A stretch of DNA of 38,033 nt, taken from a virus (lineage: Duplodnaviria; Caudoviricetes). The DNA lies in the IMG/VR virus record IMGVR_UViG_3300018050_000387, positions 1 to 38,033 of that record, one strand, 5' to 3'. Shown here in pieces: positions 3,136-14,197 of the stretch. The notes under the pieces were generated by a model that had not been told where the DNA came from, ran no database searches, and saw only the letters and a list, made by a program, of their open reading frames with translations. How positions within the stretch are numbered: the first letter of the stretch is position 1; each line of letters starts with the position of its first letter. The position numbers were made by a program, and so were the translations under genes.

Positions 3136-3885
3136 ATGTTTGACAATTTGTTTGCTCGCCACAGTAAAGTTGCTTTGATGTACTCAGGCGGGAAAGACTC
3201 GCTTGCGTGTTTGCATCTACTTAAAAATTATTTGGACAAACTTACAGTAGTTTGGGTAAACACAAATGCTGGGTTCCCAGAAATTCAGGAAACTATGGAG
3301 CAACTCAAAATTAGAGTTCCTAATTTTCTTGAAGTTGTAAGTGACCAGCCTACTTCTGTTGCGCTACGTGGGTACCCGTCTGATGTTGTACCAGTAAGTT
3401 ACACGGCTACAGGGCAACAGTTTGAGCAAACCCAAAATATTACGTTGCGCACTTATATAGATTGCTGTTCAGAAAATATGTGGAATCCGTTAGACCAAGC
3501 AATTAAAAAATTTGGTTTTACCGCTGCTATTTTTGGACAACGTTTTGATGAAATTCGTAAAGCCCCCGGTAAGTCCGGGAACATTTATGATGGCGTGGAG
3601 CGCATCCACCCTATTGAGGATTGGACTAAAGAAGACGTATTGGCGTATCTTACTGAATGCGGGGTTGACACGTCAGGTCGGCTTAGCATGGAGCACTCCT
3701 CATTGGATTGCTGGAACTGCACTGCGCACTGCAACCATTCTGTAGAACGTATGGCCTACATCAAAACAAACCATCCAGAAAAGTATACGCACGTTGTGCA
3801 ATTGCTTCGGCGGATTGATAATGCAGTAACGGAACAAATGTCGGGGCTACGCGCTCTGACTCGAGAGGAAAATCATGGCGTTTAA
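3136..3885 (+). CDS. PAPS reductase-family (PP-loop adenine nucleotide alpha-hydrolase) protein, 249 aa
   Basis: YSGGKDS PP-loop, GQRFDE, HPIEDWTKEDV, SSLDCWNCT; ATG at 3136 follows the upstream stop (2944 start overlaps the previous gene and is unlikely). Confidence 0.85.
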   Translation: MFDNLFARHSKVALMYSGGKDSLACLHLLKNYLDKLTVVWVNTNAGFPEIQETMEQLKIRVPNFLEVVSDQPTSVALRGYPSDVVPVSYTATGQQFEQTQNITLRTYIDCCSENMWNPLDQAIKKFGFTAAIFGQRFDEIRKAPGKSGNIYDGVERIHPIEDWTKEDVLAYLTECGVDTSGRLSMEHSSLDCWNCTAHCNHSVERMAYIKTNHPEKYTHVVQLLRRIDNAVTEQMSGLRALTREENHGV

Positions 3886-5683: not shown

Positions 5684-8600
5684 ATGGCCTCTTCTTTCGT
5701 CCCCTTTCGCACGGTCGTTGGGTCAGAAGACAACAATTCTGGGTTTCAACCTATTCGGGAAGTAACACTTCCGCCGCCGCCCAAAGGCGGGTTTTTCTCC
5801 GACATTAAACGGGGTACGGGCCAAGTTGTTGAAGCCGTTGGTTCTACACTCCAAGATGTTGGTGCGGATGAAGTTGGCCAAGCCATTGAAGGCTATGGTC
5901 GCGGTGTTGTTCGCCGCAATCCTTCAGAGATTGGGACGTTTGGTGAGGCGCTAAGTAGCCCGCTTACTACCGCCCGTGAAGCCGTTGGCGAACTTGTTCC
6001 GCAGATTGGCTCTTCTCTTGCCACTGGTTTGGCTGGGCGAGTGGTTGGCGGCGCTTTGGGCTTACCTTTTGGGCCTGTTGGTGTGGCCGTTGGTCAAAAC
6101 CTGGGGGCAGCTGGTGGTGCGTACCTTGGAAACTTGGTACAAGAATACGGCGGCATTCGTACTGAACAGCGCGAACAAGGCATAGAGGATAAAACCCGCG
6201 CTCTGGGTACTGCTGGTGCTGCTGCGGTGCTTGACACTGCGTTTGGTGCTGAAAGAATTGCCAACAGATTCCTCAAAGAAGGCTCCGACATTCTGGCCCG
6301 TCAACCGGGCAGCAGCCTTTTAAAGCAAGTCGGCAAACAAGGCGCAATTGGGTTTGGGATTGAGTCTGTCACTGAGGGAGCGCAAACCGGCCTTGAGCGG
6401 TATGGCGCATACAAACCCCTGACTGGCGATGAAGCGTACAACGAGTATGGCTTAGCCATGCTGAAAGGCGGTATTGGTGGCGGCGTTGTTCGTGGCGGGT
6501 TGGCGGCTGTTGCGGGGGAACAAACTCCTCCTGGCGGAAGTCTGCTTCAAGGCGGAAACAAAACCCAAGACACCAATGCTATCCAGCAAGCGTTTGACCA
6601 ACCTCAGACTTCTGGGACACCGCTTACAAACGTAACGCCCCCACCTGCGCCACCTATCACGCCATCGGCTGATACCACGCCACCTCCAGCACCCATCGTG
6701 TCTGGGGGCACAACGCCCATTGCACAGGCTACCCAACAACAGGGCCAAGCGGACGCTGCTGCACAGCAACAACAGCAACAGCAAGCACAACGTGACCTGA
6801 CAATCAGCCAGTTTGGTTTGACCGGAGACACTCCTGGCACTGGAAGCTTCTTTGGTCGTCCGATCTTTGGGCCAGCAATAAATCAGGTTGCTGATGCACT
6901 TGCCCCTATTGCAGCGCAGTTAAACCCTGCCGAAGCTGCCATCATGGACGCCATTGTTACCGCAGACCAAAAGCTGGGCAACAAACTTTTAAGCTTTCAA
7001 TTTAACGCCGATAAAATTGCCAACTCTGTCCAGAAGGGCGTGCAGGCGGTTACGACTGCGGCTACCAAATTCCAGATTGCTGACGTTCAAACCGTGGGCG
7101 AAGCTGCATATAGACTCAATGAACTCTCAAAGTCTGCCAAAGGGCAGGCGCTGGAACAAATCAACGCCATCCATGAAGCCTTGACTGGTAAGGACACGGA
7201 AGGGTATATTGCATCACAGACCTCAAAACCGAAAGGAAAATCAAATGTACAGCAACAACAGCAAGTGTCTTCCGGGCTGGGAACAGTTCCAGTCCAAGGC
7301 GGAACAATCCAAGGCGATGGCGGACTCACTGGGCTTTTACAACCCGGCGCAGTTCAACCCGTCGGGGCAGGAGTTGTCTCTGGAGCAGCGAATGACCAGC
7401 AAGCTGGACAGCTACCAGGAGAAGGAATACGGACTGGCCCCAGTGTCGCCCCCGCAGATGATCTCGGTGGTGCTGCCCAAACGCCGCAAGATGTAAGTGG
7501 AGCGCCAAGTGAAACAACCGTCGCCACCGCCCCAAGTGCCCAAAATGTCGAAGCAAACGCGCCAGTACTCGAACAAGGGGTACAGCGCGGTGGCGCGGCA
7601 CCTACTGGGACTGTTCAAACCCAAGAAGGGCTAAGCCCTGGGCGAGTTGCTTGGGAGGAAATGGACGGCACGGGTACATCGTTTGATGACCTGCCTGAAA
7701 ATCTTCAGCAAGTTTGGGAACGTGCCGTAGCCGAAAACAGGGCCACTGGGGACATTCAAGAAACACTGGCCGCTAGTGCTCAGGATACTAGCCTTGCAGC
7801 CAAGGCCCGCGCTGTGTTGCGTGCCGCATTGGACATGGTTATTCAGCCAACGTCCAGGATGTCCGAAGATGTAGCCGCCCGTAAACGAGAGTTTGTCGCA
7901 GCCTATTGGGGTGGCGCACGTTCTGATGCACTGACAAAAGTAGCTGCTGACCTCGGCATTTCCAAAGATCAGGCCAAACGGTGGTCTGCTGAGTTGCCCA
8001 ACTTCTTGACCGTAAATGGTCAGAAGATCAAAGCTGCGGTTGAGACCGTCGCCAAAGAGCGTGGCATTGACATTGCTGACGTACTTGATGGGTTGCGCAG
8101 CATTGAGGAGCAGCATCCAACCGAAGAAATGGTGGATGAGATTGAAGGCACAGGCCAAAGCACTTCTGCCACGGAAGAGCCGTTGTCTTCTGACCAAGAA
8201 GATATCGAAGTAGATCAGGGACAGCTTAACAAAGCACCTGAGGAAGAACTCAACACTGCGGAAGCTGATGCCGGGCAGAATGATTTTGTCATCTCCAGCC
8301 GTAAAAGCGCCAGCCTGCAAGAACAGAACAACGCAGTTGAAACCAACCAAGCCAAGATCATGCGCTTGTTGGACATGCAAGACAAGATCAACGAAGCCGA
8401 GTCTATCGAGAATCCCCCGGCTCCAAAGATTGTTTCTTTGTCCGAAGCTGCATTGGAAAAGCTTGGCGGCGATGTCACCAAACTCAAAGAACACGACTTG
8501 TTGAATTTGGCCGTGAACGCCAAACTGACTGAAAACTTTGAACTTGCTGACCAACTCAACGCAGAGTTAAGCAGCCGCATTGAAAAAGCGCTTGAAAAAG

Positions 8601-11600
8601 CTCAGAAGCAAGCAGACCAGAAAACCCAGAAAGGGACGACAAATGCCGTTCAAGAGCCAAGCACAGAAAAAGTATCTGTTCCTGAAGGAGCCGCAGGTGG
8701 CGAAGAAGTGGGCAAAGGAGTCGCCAAAGTCGGCAAAGCTACCCGAGTACGTAAAGCCAAAGTCGAAAAGCCCGTCGAAACCAAAGTCGAAGAAGTAACT
8801 CCTGCCGTCCTTACGCCCAAAGAGCAATGGGACGCACTCACACAACAATTTCCTGGGATGCCTCCATATGATGTTCTTACAAAATCTGAAAAAGAAACTT
8901 GGGACGATTTTGCCAACCGTGGTTTCGGTGACATCGGGTCTGTGGCAACGGTTCTTGGAGGCGCTGACAAAATTGCAAAAGCGTCTGAAGCGGTAACTGA
9001 AACTGCTGCGCCTGCTGTTGAGCCTGTCGTTGAGCCTGCTGCTGAACCCGTGGCTGAAACTGCCGCGCCTGTTGAGGAAACTGTCCAAGAGCAAGTGACT
9101 GAAGAAGTCCTCGCCCCTCAACTGGAAGCCCTGCCTGAAGCACAAGTCCAACGCCTTGAAACCCACTACGGTGAAAAGCGTGACTCTGCTTCCTTCTTGG
9201 CTAAGGTCAAAGAAGATGTGGTGTTGTATGCCACCAAGGGTGCGCAGGCTGTAGCTGGTGCAATTCGAGATGTCATCAAGGCCATCCATGCTGGTGTCCT
9301 GTCCGTGGCCATGATCTTTAACCCAGGGGCAATATCACAACTGGAATCCTTCGTGGTCATCCCGCAGGAAACCCAGACTACGACCCAACAGGTTTTGGCG
9401 GAAGTGCCAGCCGACGTTGTCGGTATGTCCGATGCAGGCAAGCAAGCCTACGCTACTCTGATTCCTGCGCTCAAGGGCAAGCTTGGGGACAAGTTTATAA
9501 CCATTGCCGACAAGCCAAGTGGACGCATCTTTGTGTTCAAAGCTGATGGCAGTCTGGTCATACAGAAGAAAGCCCTGTTTGGCTTGGCTAAGGGCGACTT
9601 GTACAAAGGCAACAACGATGTTCCGTCCAATCGTGTAACTCCCGCTGGTTTGTTTGGTATCAACATTGTGGACGCCGCCAAGGGGGGCGCTGCTGCCAAG
9701 ACTGCTGGTGACTATGACTTCGGCAAAGTGTTTGCCTTGGACGACCCTGATGCCACGGTGACTTTCATGCACTCCGTCTGGCTCAAAGAGTCTGACGCTC
9801 CCAAACGTGCTGCTGCCTTGAAGAACGAGTCTGCCACTGACTCACGCTACTCGTTTGGCTGTATCAACGTGGACAAAGAAACGTTCAAGGACATGGTCAC
9901 CAAGTACAGCGACCAGATGGACGGCTCCAAGTTGTTTGTGGTTCCTGACGCTCAGAGCACGGTCAATGACTTTGTAACTGGCAACGTGGCCAACGACAGG
10001 CTCATCCGCGAAGGGGTGCAGCCCGTAACCAGAACCACTACGACTCCAGTTAAGTCAGCCACACAAACTGCTGGTGTCAACCGAACCGTCGTTGGTAAGG
10101 AAGAACAAGCGCCCACCACTCAACAGTCTCGAGCAAACCAGCCTGTCGTAGAACGCTACACCGCTGAAGAACTGCAAACGTCTTTGCTGGACTATGTAAA
10201 CCGTGAGTCTTTGGGTAAAGATGTTTTTGTAGTCGATGAACTGGAAGACCTTCGTTCGCTGCCTGAGTTTGCAGCAATGACGGATGAAGAGTTTGCCAAC
10301 TTCCTGACCAAGGAAAAGATTGACGGGCAGACCCAAGCGTTTGTTACCGAAAGCGGCAAGGCTTACTTGCTTGCCAGCAATATCGACGTGGGCACAGGTC
10401 GTGGCGTGTTCATGCACGAAGTCGGCGTCCACCTTGGATTGCAAGAGAAATTGCCTGATGCGTCGTTTGCTCGTTTGGTTGACCAGATCAAGGTCTGGGC
10501 CAAACTTAATGACGGGTCGATTGAAAACCAGCTGGCTATTGCAGCTTCAGACCGTGTGTTCCAGTCTCGAGTTTCTGACCCTGTCCAACGCAGACGTGAG
10601 TTTGTTGCGTACTTTGTCGAAGCCGCTGTAAACGCTGGGCTTAACCCCAAGGCGTATGAAAACATTCAGTCTGCTGGTTTGCGTGAGTGGATGAGGTCTT
10701 TGTGGGCGGCACTTAAGAATGCTCTGCGCAAACTACGTGGCATCAACATTGACAAACTGAGCGCCCAAGACGTAGTGGACATGACCTACGGCTATGCGCA
10801 AATGGCGATTGGCGCTCCAAAGTTCCAAGGTAGCGGCAAGATATTTCGTAAGTTCCAGATGAAATTTGCTGGAACAGGCGTTGGTCAAATGTATGGCCAC
10901 GGGTTGTACTTTACCGATAGGCCAGAAGTGGCTTCTGGTTTTGCCAAAGGGCAAACCCCTCAGTTGTATGGCGCTGATTTGGCCATTGCCAACGACGAAT
11001 TGTTAGACTGGAACACTCCGGTAGCGCAACAAAGCGCAATAGCGCAAAAAGCTGCGGCTGATGCGGCTAAAGAGTTTGGCGTAATATCTGCAAACGGCAG
11101 TGCTTTGTATAAAAGAAGTCTTCGTGGCGGGGATTTTTATAATGATCTAGCCAATCAGATGTACAAAAAAGCCACTGGTAAAGACGTAACCACCAAGGCA
11201 CAAGTTACTGAGTCACAAAAAATGGCTTCGGAATGGCTTGACGCTCACGGAGTAAAAGGCGTTAAATACGGCGGCGACAACTACGTTGTGTTTAACGAAG
11301 ACAACATCATTCGTGTCAACCGCGCAGCTGGTATGCCCACAGGGCGCATGGACAAAGGTCGGCCAGAAGTGGAGTGGGGCAGTGTCCAGCAGTCCCGTAG
11401 GGTAGACGCTGCGGTTAATCTTCTGCCGCCCAAGTTGCGCAGTCCTGCTAGGAACACAACTACCGATTTGCTGTACCAAGCCAAGAAAGGCATGTTGGCT
11501 TCTGCAATCACTGAAGACGTGATCAACATGGCCAGCAAGTTCATGAAGTCTGCCAAGACTTATCTGGCAGCGCAGTACGCACGGCAAGCTACTCGGTTAA

Positions 11601-14197
11601 ACCATGAACTGAAGATTGACAAAATTCTTACTCAGTTCGACAAACTGCCCAAGAACCTCCAGGGTACGGGTGAAGGGTCTGTCAACAAGTACATTTTTGA
11701 TTCGACCCGTGAAGGCAAGTGGGGGTACATCCCTGACGAGCGCATGGTGGGAACCACGCTGTTGACCGTTGACCCTGATATGAAAAAACGGTATGACGCA
11801 TTCCCCGATGACGCTAAAAAATTAATTCGTGATGTGTTTGAGCAAGGGTATGACGCGCTGGACGCCAAGCAAAACGCAGTGACGGCTGCGGTTGATCGTG
11901 AGTATGCTGATCGACTCAAGGCTGTCCAAGGGGACACCGAACTCACAGACAAGTTGAACAAGGAAAAGAAACGTGCACTGTCTCGTGAGAGAAAACTGCT
12001 TGGGCTGGACAGCAGCAAACCCTATGCGTACTTGGGCCGCTATGGCGACTACGTGGTTGTCGGCAAGTCTGCTGAGTACAAGTTCCATGAAGAACAAGTC
12101 AAAGCTGGGCCAGTGGTCAAGGGTGAAGACTTGATGGGGGCACGGTCTGCGGCATGGCTGGACGAGAACCGAACCAATCCTGCGCACTATGTGGTGCAGT
12201 TCGCTGAGACCCTGGGGGAAGCAAATCAGATTGCTGACCAGCTGAACGCCACTGGTAACTACGACATTGCTGAGTCCTACGAGAAAGAACCCTATTCCCA
12301 AGAAGGCGGGGACTTGTTCTTGGCTGTGGCTCGTCTGCGTACCTTGTTTGACAAAGAAGCCGAAGGCGCAAACCCAGCGGCTCAAGCGTCAATCCGCAAC
12401 TTGTTGGGGGATTTGTACCTGCACACGGTGTCTGAAGCCAGTTCCCGCAAGTCTGAATTCCAGAGGCTCAACATTTCTGGAGCCGATCAGGACATGATGC
12501 GTAATTTGGCCACTCGTGGTCGGGCTGATGCACACTTCTTGGCTGCGCTGGAACACAATGACGCTATCTCGGACGCCATCACTGCCATGCGTGAAGAACG
12601 CAATCGCAATCGCGGAGAGGCTGGCCCATACTTCAACGAACTGCTCAAGCGTCATGCGAACAGTATGAAGTATGAAACTCCTGGCGTGTTGTCCGGTGCG
12701 TTGCTGCGTATGTCCAACGTGTGGTACTTGGCCACCAACCCAGCGTATTACTTGCAGCAGATTCTGCAAACTGGGGTGTTGTCTCTGCCGTATATGTCTG
12801 GGCGTCTGGGGTATTTCCGCTCAGCCCGTGCTGTAAAGAAAGCATACGGCGACATGGCTACCCTGGTTAAGGGACTGGGTGTTGGCGACCACATTGATTT
12901 CAACAAAGCCCCCGCTGACGTGCGCGAGATGCTAACCAAGCTGGTTGGTATGGGCAAGATTGACATTGGTATTGACTCTGACGCTCGTGTCCGCGCTGGC
13001 GAAGCTGGCGTTGCCGCCAAGGTGATGCAGAAACTCCAAGGGGTAAACAACCGCATCGAAGCAGTCAACCGGGCAACTGCGGCAATTGCTGCATATCGTG
13101 GGTACTTAGACCGCTACAAGAACGGCGACACTGCTGCTGCCACCGCATATGCTGCTGATGTGGTGTCAAACACCCACGGCTCGTACGATGCTTTCAATAC
13201 GCCACGTATCATGCAGACTGGTGCTGGCAAAGTGTTGCTTCAGTTCAAGCGGTTCCAGATCATTCAAATCTCCATGCTGCTCAAGCTGATCAACACAGCG
13301 TTCAAGGGTGCATCTCAAGATGAGAAAGCAGTTGCGCGTCGTGCCCTTGGTTTTATTGCTGGTCACATGATGGTGTTGGGTGGTGCAATTGGTGTTCCGC
13401 TTGTACAGCAGTTTGGTTCGCTTTTGCTCAAAGCATTTGGCGATGACGATGAACCAGAGAACCTGGAACTCACACTGCGGCGTTTGATCAATGACCCTGT
13501 CATGGCGGACTTGCTGATCAATGGTGTCCCTGGTGCGCTTGGTGTCAACTTGGGCAGCAAACTGGGTATGGGTAACGTGTTCTCCATCCTGCCATTCACA
13601 GACATTGATTTTACAAGCCGTGCTGGCGCAGAGAAAATGCTGGTCGGCATCATGGGGCCATCCGCTGGTCTGGGTCTGAAGTTTGCTGACGGCTTGGGTC
13701 AGATGGCAAGTGGGGAGTACTACAAGGGTTTGGAGTCCATGTTGCCAAGCGGTGTGGCCAATGTGATGAAAGCTGGTCGATTTGCCACTGAAGGTGTCAC
13801 CATGCGTAATGGCGACGTGGTCTTGAAGCCTGAAGAGATCAGCATGTTTGACGCAGCGTTCCAAGCTGTTGGCCTGCCCACGACTACTCTGACAGATCGC
13901 CAATTTACCCAGCGTGTTGTTGCTGAGTTTGACAAGTTCTACGACAAGCGCACCACGGAAATCAAGGGCGACTACGTCAACGCTTCCCGTGACGGGGATG
14001 TAAATGGTATGGCTGATGCTCGTGAGGAATGGAGTAAACTTCAAGAATCACGGGTCAAGAATGGCTACAAACGCCAGCCTTTATCCGATCTGTTTAGAGC
14101 GCCTTCTGCCGCAGCCAAGCGGGAACGCAACATTGCTGGTGGTGTGGAGTTTAGCAAATCTAACCGCCAATTTGTAGAATCTTTATCAACCCTTTAA
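5684..14197 (+). CDS. Giant polyvalent ejection protein (2837 aa) with L,D-transpeptidase-like, zincin metallopeptidase-like, ART-like and PLxRFG-like segments
   Basis: Gly-rich membrane-like N-terminus; TPAG...FMHSVW...SFGCINV (YkuD-like); FMHEVGVH...REFVAYFVE; YGHGLYFT...GVKGVKY...NYVVF; YAYLGRYGDY; helical C-terminus with LLQFKRFQ. Confidence 0.85.
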   Translation: MASSFVPFRTVVGSEDNNSGFQPIREVTLPPPPKGGFFSDIKRGTGQVVEAVGSTLQDVGADEVGQAIEGYGRGVVRRNPSEIGTFGEALSSPLTTAREAVGELVPQIGSSLATGLAGRVVGGALGLPFGPVGVAVGQNLGAAGGAYLGNLVQEYGGIRTEQREQGIEDKTRALGTAGAAAVLDTAFGAERIANRFLKEGSDILARQPGSSLLKQVGKQGAIGFGIESVTEGAQTGLERYGAYKPLTGDEAYNEYGLAMLKGGIGGGVVRGGLAAVAGEQTPPGGSLLQGGNKTQDTNAIQQAFDQPQTSGTPLTNVTPPPAPPITPSADTTPPPAPIVSGGTTPIAQATQQQGQADAAAQQQQQQQAQRDLTISQFGLTGDTPGTGSFFGRPIFGPAINQVADALAPIAAQLNPAEAAIMDAIVTADQKLGNKLLSFQFNADKIANSVQKGVQAVTTAATKFQIADVQTVGEAAYRLNELSKSAKGQALEQINAIHEALTGKDTEGYIASQTSKPKGKSNVQQQQQVSSGLGTVPVQGGTIQGDGGLTGLLQPGAVQPVGAGVVSGAANDQQAGQLPGEGIRTGPSVAPADDLGGAAQTPQDVSGAPSETTVATAPSAQNVEANAPVLEQGVQRGGAAPTGTVQTQEGLSPGRVAWEEMDGTGTSFDDLPENLQQVWERAVAENRATGDIQETLAASAQDTSLAAKARAVLRAALDMVIQPTSRMSEDVAARKREFVAAYWGGARSDALTKVAADLGISKDQAKRWSAELPNFLTVNGQKIKAAVETVAKERGIDIADVLDGLRSIEEQHPTEEMVDEIEGTGQSTSATEEPLSSDQEDIEVDQGQLNKAPEEELNTAEADAGQNDFVISSRKSASLQEQNNAVETNQAKIMRLLDMQDKINEAESIENPPAPKIVSLSEAALEKLGGDVTKLKEHDLLNLAVNAKLTENFELADQLNAELSSRIEKALEKAQKQADQKTQKGTTNAVQEPSTEKVSVPEGAAGGEEVGKGVAKVGKATRVRKAKVEKPVETKVEEVTPAVLTPKEQWDALTQQFPGMPPYDVLTKSEKETWDDFANRGFGDIGSVATVLGGADKIAKASEAVTETAAPAVEPVVEPAAEPVAETAAPVEETVQEQVTEEVLAPQLEALPEAQVQRLETHYGEKRDSASFLAKVKEDVVLYATKGAQAVAGAIRDVIKAIHAGVLSVAMIFNPGAISQLESFVVIPQETQTTTQQVLAEVPADVVGMSDAGKQAYATLIPALKGKLGDKFITIADKPSGRIFVFKADGSLVIQKKALFGLAKGDLYKGNNDVPSNRVTPAGLFGINIVDAAKGGAAAKTAGDYDFGKVFALDDPDATVTFMHSVWLKESDAPKRAAALKNESATDSRYSFGCINVDKETFKDMVTKYSDQMDGSKLFVVPDAQSTVNDFVTGNVANDRLIREGVQPVTRTTTTPVKSATQTAGVNRTVVGKEEQAPTTQQSRANQPVVERYTAEELQTSLLDYVNRESLGKDVFVVDELEDLRSLPEFAAMTDEEFANFLTKEKIDGQTQAFVTESGKAYLLASNIDVGTGRGVFMHEVGVHLGLQEKLPDASFARLVDQIKVWAKLNDGSIENQLAIAASDRVFQSRVSDPVQRRREFVAYFVEAAVNAGLNPKAYENIQSAGLREWMRSLWAALKNALRKLRGINIDKLSAQDVVDMTYGYAQMAIGAPKFQGSGKIFRKFQMKFAGTGVGQMYGHGLYFTDRPEVASGFAKGQTPQLYGADLAIANDELLDWNTPVAQQSAIAQKAAADAAKEFGVISANGSALYKRSLRGGDFYNDLANQMYKKATGKDVTTKAQVTESQKMASEWLDAHGVKGVKYGGDNYVVFNEDNIIRVNRAAGMPTGRMDKGRPEVEWGSVQQSRRVDAAVNLLPPKLRSPARNTTTDLLYQAKKGMLASAITEDVINMASKFMKSAKTYLAAQYARQATRLNHELKIDKILTQFDKLPKNLQGTGEGSVNKYIFDSTREGKWGYIPDERMVGTTLLTVDPDMKKRYDAFPDDAKKLIRDVFEQGYDALDAKQNAVTAAVDREYADRLKAVQGDTELTDKLNKEKKRALSRERKLLGLDSSKPYAYLGRYGDYVVVGKSAEYKFHEEQVKAGPVVKGEDLMGARSAAWLDENRTNPAHYVVQFAETLGEANQIADQLNATGNYDIAESYEKEPYSQEGGDLFLAVARLRTLFDKEAEGANPAAQASIRNLLGDLYLHTVSEASSRKSEFQRLNISGADQDMMRNLATRGRADAHFLAALEHNDAISDAITAMREERNRNRGEAGPYFNELLKRHANSMKYETPGVLSGALLRMSNVWYLATNPAYYLQQILQTGVLSLPYMSGRLGYFRSARAVKKAYGDMATLVKGLGVGDHIDFNKAPADVREMLTKLVGMGKIDIGIDSDARVRAGEAGVAAKVMQKLQGVNNRIEAVNRATAAIAAYRGYLDRYKNGDTAAATAYAADVVSNTHGSYDAFNTPRIMQTGAGKVLLQFKRFQIIQISMLLKLINTAFKGASQDEKAVARRALGFIAGHMMVLGGAIGVPLVQQFGSLLLKAFGDDDEPENLELTLRRLINDPVMADLLINGVPGALGVNLGSKLGMGNVFSILPFTDIDFTSRAGAEKMLVGIMGPSAGLGLKFADGLGQMASGEYYKGLESMLPSGVANVMKAGRFATEGVTMRNGDVVLKPEEISMFDAAFQAVGLPTTTLTDRQFTQRVVAEFDKFYDKRTTEIKGDYVNASRDGDVNGMADAREEWSKLQESRVKNGYKRQPLSDLFRAPSAAAKRERNIAGGVEFSKSNRQFVESLSTL
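7245..7496 (+). CDS. Candidate overprinted gene A (83 aa) in +1 frame of the giant gene
   Basis: GAAAGGAAAATCAA-ATG; product MYSNNSKCLPGWEQFQSK...PKRRKM has normal complexity while the host frame is low-complexity Q/G/V. Confidence 0.6.
   Translation: MYSNNSKCLPGWEQFQSKAEQSKAMADSLGFYNPAQFNPSGQELSLEQRMTSKLDSYQEKEYGLAPVSPPQMISVVLPKRRKM
7509..7634 (+). CDS. Candidate overprinted gene B (41 aa, basic) in +1 frame
   Basis: GGAG-6nt-GTG just after gene A stop; MKQPSPPPQVPKMSKQTRQYSNKGYSAVARHLLGLFKPKKG. Confidence 0.45.
   Translation: MKQPSPPPQVPKMSKQTRQYSNKGYSAVARHLLGLFKPKKG
8643..8798 (+). CDS. Candidate overprinted gene C (51 aa, basic MPFKS-type phage protein) in +1 frame
   Basis: AAAGGGA-6nt-ATG; MPFKSQAQKKYLFLKEPQVAKKWAKESPKSAKLPEYVK resembles small phage proteins I recall starting MPFKSxAQ...PExAKxW. 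Confidence 0.75.
   Translation: MPFKSQAQKKYLFLKEPQVAKKWAKESPKSAKLPEYVKPKSKSPSKPKSKK
8992..9080 (+). repeat. Degenerate tandem repeats encoding an ETAAP/EPAA/EPVV linker
   Basis: CTGAAACTGCYGCGCCTG occurs twice and GTTGAGCCTG twice; translates to VTETAAPAVEPVVEPAAEPVAETAAPVEE. Confidence 0.7.

Follow-up and report, generated by a model that had tools for sequence, protein, structure and literature searches.

The protein at the center of this study, a 51-residue basic peptide that opens with MPFKS, is almost certainly the product of a real gene lying whole within the +1 frame of a 2837-codon phage open reading frame (ORF), and sequence comparison indicates that at this stretch selection guards the small protein and not the host sequence. 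The window, by which we mean the whole 38,033-nucleotide stretch analyzed (IMG/VR virus record IMGVR_UViG_3300018050_000387; Duplodnaviria, Caudoviricetes), carries the features below, among them a second nested gene. Both nested genes are likely real genes overlooked by annotation.

5684..14197, + strand: host giant gene, 2837 aa, with a PLxRFG C-terminal domain at aa 2171-2817
7232..7237, + strand: Shine-Dalgarno-like site AAAGGA of nested gene 2, 7 nt before the ATG (pairing energy -5.6)
7245..7496, + strand: nested gene 2, 83 aa, in the +1 frame of the same giant gene, no family matched
8630..8636, + strand: Shine-Dalgarno-like site AAAGGGA of nested gene 1, 6 nt before the ATG (pairing energy -5.0)
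8643..8798, + strand: nested gene 1, 51-aa basic MPFKS protein, PHROG 1375-like, in the +1 frame of the giant ORF

The nested genes and their giant host

Ahead of the giant ORF the window has a tail-tube-like gene, an acetyltransferase gene and virion genes, with replication genes on the opposite strand. The giant protein shows a profile match to the PLxRFG domain (306 bits), a DarB-like PHROG match, an ART-PolyVal match of 21.9 bits (under the 31.2 cut-off) and a HEXXH motif spotted by eye, and is likely a virion ejection (polyvalent) protein. With its HEXXH motif, its weak ART-PolyVal match and its DarB-like match it may be, like the polyvalent proteins described in the main text of PMC5512222, a giant multidomain phage protein; in that main text the word "overlapping" is absent and "nested" occurs twice, both times for a hairpin fold. 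Promoter and terminator scans of the window gave no excess over chance level (6 promoters found vs 5.0 expected; 15 terminators vs 12.3), and RNA-library contigs, which are uninformative as to strand and translation, cover 7259-7726, 7715-7898 and 8756-8960. Among the minor features of the window, a PAPS-reductase-like gene (3136-3885) and a GNAT acetyltransferase gene (1792-2217) lie inside the block of virion genes. At about 9490-9960 (giant residues about 1270-1425) there is an HxxW...SxGC pattern with no database match, which we take to resemble an L,D-transpeptidase-like domain; it sits in a block that is 67% identical in L003-L005 and unaligned in several other close relatives.

Nested gene 1 opens exactly as quoted in the original prediction, with AAAGGGA at 8630-8636 and, after 6 nt, an ATG at 8643, and it closes after 51 codons with a TAA at 8796-8798. 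Its Lys content, put at about one third, was counted at 16 of 51 residues (31%; pI 10.3). The predicted structure has helices at residues 6-15 and 17-26 followed by a Lys/Ser/Pro tail (mean pLDDT 84), and across the same stretch the host frame encodes NAVQEPSTEKVSVPEGAAGGEEVGKG. That 51 codons are open is by itself unremarkable: when the host stretch was recoded at random with synonymous codons 2000 times, the +1 frame stayed open throughout in 29% of cases, and in the window it is already open from 8580, ahead of the ATG. Since chance openness is this common, the case for nested gene 1 rests on comparison, and what stands above chance for the peptide is its homology, not the length of its frame.

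For that comparison, loci were fetched by the C-terminal region of the host rather than by the peptide, which makes the test non-circular; the rows making up the giant query alignment had mostly been found through the peptide at first, and because pN/pS from peptide-selected loci is biased, host-selected sets were used instead. The giant set comprised 93 loci (80 of 140 viral plus 13 genomic), 73 of them 5'-complete. Nested gene 1 was present in 50 of these 73, that is, in all 30 giants with at least 53% C-terminal identity and in 20 of the 43 below that level; the other 23 of the 43 more distant giants have no MPFKS gene, nor a free copy in the fetched flanks. At these 50 unique loci the start codon is ATG in 47 and GTG in three, and the nested +1 frame is closed upstream a median of 15 codons before it. 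Pairing with the anti-Shine-Dalgarno sequence has a median energy of -7.3, compared with -1.9 for 3574 other +1 ATGs, and reaches -4 or lower at 50/50 nested starts against 16% of those other ATGs. Nested gene 1 is likely translated from its own ribosome-binding site.

Selection acts on the small protein but not on the host. Over the 50 loci the nested frame has a pN/pS of 0.32 and the host frame one of 1.37, while 13 other conserved +1 ORF clusters, serving as shadow controls, gave the reverse pattern (0.96-1.95 in +1 vs 0.12-0.25 in the host), all of these values being pairwise, uncorrected and non-independent. A near-identical strain, found in two runs, shows 25 differences over 7100-9100, a count that omits 14 from a minor contig at 7732-7789; all 3 that fall within the two nested genes leave the +1 protein unchanged but alter the host protein, whereas outside them 19/22 are silent in the host. 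These results agree with the original proposal that the host frame is here a shadow of the small gene, and they do not favor the host frame as the better explanation of the conservation: the nested frame is under purifying selection, and the host frame remains open yet drifts. They also bear on the reading that denies an independent gene altogether: the frame would be open by chance, would echo conservation of the host sequence, or would supply the end of a product of programmed +1 frameshifting. Although the ease with which the frame stays open under recoding, together with its opening from 8580, would suit that reading, we consider it very improbable in view of the reversed selection signature, the conserved start and ribosome-binding site with GTG variants at the start, and the existence of free homologues.

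Two minor observations concern these giants. A close strain carries a 12-nt in-frame deletion at window position 9017, in the Ala/Pro/Glu repeat of the giant protein. Short +1 ORFs starting with MP occur in the MPFKS-less giants L344, L347, L374, L378 and L383; two of them have a VLSQDKF-like motif in common, and that of L383 has a strong ribosome-binding site.

Nested gene 2 was revealed by clustering all alternative-frame ORFs. It is common to 30 loci with a median pairing energy of -7.9, and its pN/pS of 0.37 in +1 vs 1.55 in the host resembles that of nested gene 1. An alignment search with it returned 51 loci, all 51 nested and none free, and among 45 sufficiently long loci the MPFKS gene lies in the same host ORF in 44. 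It had no match in PHROG or NCBIfam, and its predicted model is of low confidence (pLDDT 61). In another giant clade its place is taken by an unlike ORF, about 66 aa long, near host residue 420-540 and with strong ribosome-binding sites (L309, L338, L348, L350, L352, L354, L367; 15 loci, pN/pS 0.31 vs 1.50). Three further +1 clusters are intermediate (0.45-0.60 in +1 vs 0.51-0.76 in the host). Right after nested gene 1 the window also has a 42-codon +1 ORF (8868-8996, + strand); a similar-looking cluster of relatives at that site, to which the window ORF does not belong, has pN/pS of 0.45 in +1 and 0.76 in the host.

The MPFKS family and its hosts

The statement that proteins of this kind also occur as stand-alone genes proved correct, and homologues of the +1 peptide are numerous. 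Among 1.84 billion proteins (50%-identity representatives) 401 relatives were found at E ≤ 0.001, and 459 relatives were confirmed among 600 candidate viral stretches. We classified 204 loci (the best 80 of the 459, 120 among the matches listed, three from GenBank and the window), of which 203 had a family match: 55 copies are nested in giant ORFs, 59 are nested in a scaffold-like gene, 62 are free (two ambiguous loci being assigned to this class by hand), 23 are N-terminal fusions and four are cut by locus ends. Relative to the host, all nested copies among them are read in +1. Phe3 is encoded by TTC in 105/105 unique nested copies vs 32/81 free or fused copies; since the host frame must stay open, this is not independent proof of a nested gene.

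PHROG 1375, which has no annotated function, has the pattern MPFKS...Q...P..A..W...LP in common with these relatives and is matched by 66 of 97 that were aligned (best E 1.7e-9). The window's own peptide has no match to it at E ≤ 0.01, nor any in Pfam or NCBIfam, but it has all of the family's conserved positions (M1, P2, F3, S5, Q8, P17, A20, L33, P34) and reaches 77 bits with a profile built from the aligned relatives, itself included. Sequence search of the PDB, Foldseek and VIA-align gave no usable match and no solved fold for the peptide; a viral fold search with its model gave two uncharacterised matches at E ≤ 0.001. DUF3008 (PF11450) was tried and set aside, as its likeness lies at the two ends only (hhalign probability 2-4%, 5 aligned columns). 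Family matches are absent from phi38:1, phiKZ and HTVC010P, the last searched without a positive control. A literature search, with subscription journals mostly outside its coverage, returned no description of the family or of its nesting.

Some variants carry a cysteine pair (AC...PKW.C), possibly a disulfide or metal site; these include L221 (at 3726), L244 (3729), L248 (3729) and seven more, with further examples in L081 (12001), L083 (10001), L259 and L279. Copies are unannotated in the phages Elemo, P-RSP2, S-CBS2 and C75C1; that of the cultured Flavobacterium phage elemoA_7-9A (MT497017) is nested inside gp90, with its start at 54224. Free members without annotation are found in P-RSP2, S-CBS2, C75C1 and the Gordonia phage LilyPad (L082 at 8001, L206 at 8001, L208 at 8001 and L415 at about 2950), and another free relative is gene 45 of Streptomyces phage Fabian. 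What looks like a linker in a giant phage protein can therefore conceal conserved genes that gene callers drop, and cultured carriers make the function of the family open to experiment.

The giant hosts fall by BLAST links into three groups and two singletons. The second host type is an acidic protein of 400-430 aa, again with the MPFKS gene nested in +1, whose gene follows a terminase-like gene and is placed between ORFs of 809 aa (portal-sized) and 529 aa (capsid-sized). It has no database match and no BLAST link to the giant hosts, and from position and composition we read it as a putative scaffold. In a host-selected set (the best 80 of 561), 69 loci had a recognizable MPFKS copy, one more had it beside a break in the host frame, and in the remaining 10 the site holds an ORF of the same frame that has diverged. 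At these loci pN/pS, again pairwise, uncorrected and non-independent, was 0.24 in the nested frame, 1.04 in the host at the overlap and 0.22 in the host core.

Origin of the nesting

Nested genes are usually explained as a new frame overprinted on an old gene. The evidence here points the opposite way, to an old small gene overlaid by a host frame, within one family and in unrelated hosts. Because free, overlapping, fused and nested states are all present, the origin of the overlaps becomes directly testable. The overprinted viral genes treated in the accessible text of PMC8227390 offer the same dual coding with one disordered partner and the same internal +1 overlap, but there the +1 frame is usually the new one, while in the MPFKS case the order is reversed: by the breadth criterion of that paper the small gene would be the older frame. 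Its distribution (free, fused and in unrelated hosts) is too broad for de novo overprinting. Nested gene 2, found only nested, has a narrower distribution and may fit such an origin.

We consider it probable that a free gene was absorbed by a growing host gene, as originally suggested. Absorption is favored by the unrelated hosts, by partial overlaps and by L014, a homologous giant without the stretch in which the MPFKS gene lies free 2 nt after the giant's stop. The partial overlaps are seen in L032, L088, L103, L069, L059 and L035, where upstream ORFs in host phase reach 11 to 122 nt into free copies. By simple ORF calls, the ORF that follows closely on a free or fused copy has the host phase in 25 of 34 cases, a prevalence that would explain why nesting occurs in +1 only. 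The part of the suggestion that the peptide tree cannot prove is the absorption event itself: over 38 columns nested and free copies are intermixed, in a manner compatible with a single origin per class. As the hosts are unrelated there must have been at least two entries, and no other evidence forces that number.

As a mechanism, a free late gene would have been engulfed when the neighboring -1-phase gene extended across it. This would require only changes silent in the small gene, such as TTC for Phe3, which avoids a TAA in the host frame, and the polar shadow thus added to the host protein would be tolerated as a linker. A wider reading, which we rate as somewhat less likely than not, makes carriers of the giant ejection genes and scaffold genes in abundant aquatic phages: older small genes would have been engulfed time and again, in independent events and several to a giant gene, and their read-through shadows would be the disordered linkers of the host proteins. 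On this reading the MPFKS family is a near-universal DNA-binding head module. If true, a layer of conserved virion genes would be hidden in giant ejection and scaffold genes.

The embedded spanins, such as lambda Rz1 inside Rz, are another case of one gene contained entirely in the +1 frame of a second, and as far as the accessible text of PMC6139136 goes, stop read-through is considered one route from separated to embedded genes, the partners form one complex, and the survey has no family that mixes embedded with overlapped or separated members. The MPFKS family, unlike the spanin families, occurs in free, overlapping, fused and embedded states and in unrelated hosts. The peptide was also considered as an embedded o-spanin itself and rejected: it has no Cys, lipoprotein signal or membrane helix, and its host is a 2837-aa protein, not an i-spanin.

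Function of the MPFKS protein

For the function of the protein, our tentative preference, held with a little less than even confidence, is that it acts in the phage head as a DNA-binding protein of low copy number, whose two-helix core and basic tail would bind nucleic acid during head assembly or ejection. The full explanation, namely a protected +1 gene with its own ribosome-binding site and such a product, we regard as evenly poised between right and wrong. After it we rank an assembly cofactor, then a ribosome or RNA factor, and last a bulk condenser of DNA.

Where the genes next to free copies are annotated, they include those for terminase, portal, head protease, major head protein and GroES-like proteins as well as some for lysis; most of the neighbors scanned lack a PHROG match. 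This head-module setting would also fit a real gene that encodes a transient cofactor of head assembly or packaging or a fused capsid-targeting tag, whose partner would be scaffold, portal, terminase or capsid and not DNA. Nesting in a scaffold-like gene between portal-sized and capsid-sized ORFs and the invariant hydrophobic positions P17, A20 and L33-P34 would fit such a role, as would the N-terminal position of the fusions, behind which xE[SAG] or KxA occurs within 12 residues in 18/34 cases against 13% of background windows, these motifs having been picked after inspection of the data. They may be head-protease sites. We nonetheless think a cofactor of this kind unlikely, as the net charge of family members (median +9 to +13) speaks against it and the great diversity of phages and hosts would better suit a universal ligand such as DNA.

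Evidence from particles comes from distant relatives. Patience gp10 scores 13 bits against the family profile (shuffles reach up to 7.8) and is linked to it via Barnyard gp9 (31 bits). The accessible part of PMC4324244 reports it as expressed and counts it among the virion proteins, and Table S1 of that paper gives it one stringent peptide in particles, four at 30 min and two at 2.5 h, against 33 particle peptides for gp111 and 33 for gp12, two proteins of similarly small size; the accessible part of PMC11965321 makes no mention of gp10. CBB_322, a virion protein with 30 peptides in the portion of PMC5259590 available, begins with a weakly scoring relative of only 12-13 bits. The relative gp383 of 201phi2-1 is not annotated as detected by mass spectrometry, although its neighbor gp382 is, and Chah gp78, at about 60 kb, is surrounded by hypothetical, DNA-binding and HNH genes, the nearest 3 kb being free of annotated structural genes.

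The peptide counts of Patience gp10 weigh against the DNA-condensing core protein of the original prediction. A high-copy, histone-like protein that condenses the packaged genome would be in keeping with 31% Lys, a pI of 10.3 and strong ribosome-binding sites, and trypsin under-detects Lys-rich proteins; indeed, gp10 yields just one tryptic peptide of at least 6 residues. Yet a single particle peptide, set against the 33 of each of its small companions, and the lack of the gene in 23/43 complete distant giants make such a role improbable. The greater number of gp10 peptides in infected cells than in particles would instead accord with a translation or rescue factor that acts on RNA or ribosomes in the infected cell and is no part of the virion, and a small, basic, Lys-tailed protein with relatives outside structural modules (201phi2-1 gp383, Chah gp78) could be of this type. 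Against this we found no match to ribosomal or RNA-binding families in Pfam, NCBIfam or the PDB, and the head-module context is frequent, so that we hold it to be quite unlikely. As a separate observation on the neighborhood of the family, a PHROG 858 gene, annotated as a starvation-inducible regulator, directly follows the fusion-type copies in L015, L022, L028, L032 and L036.
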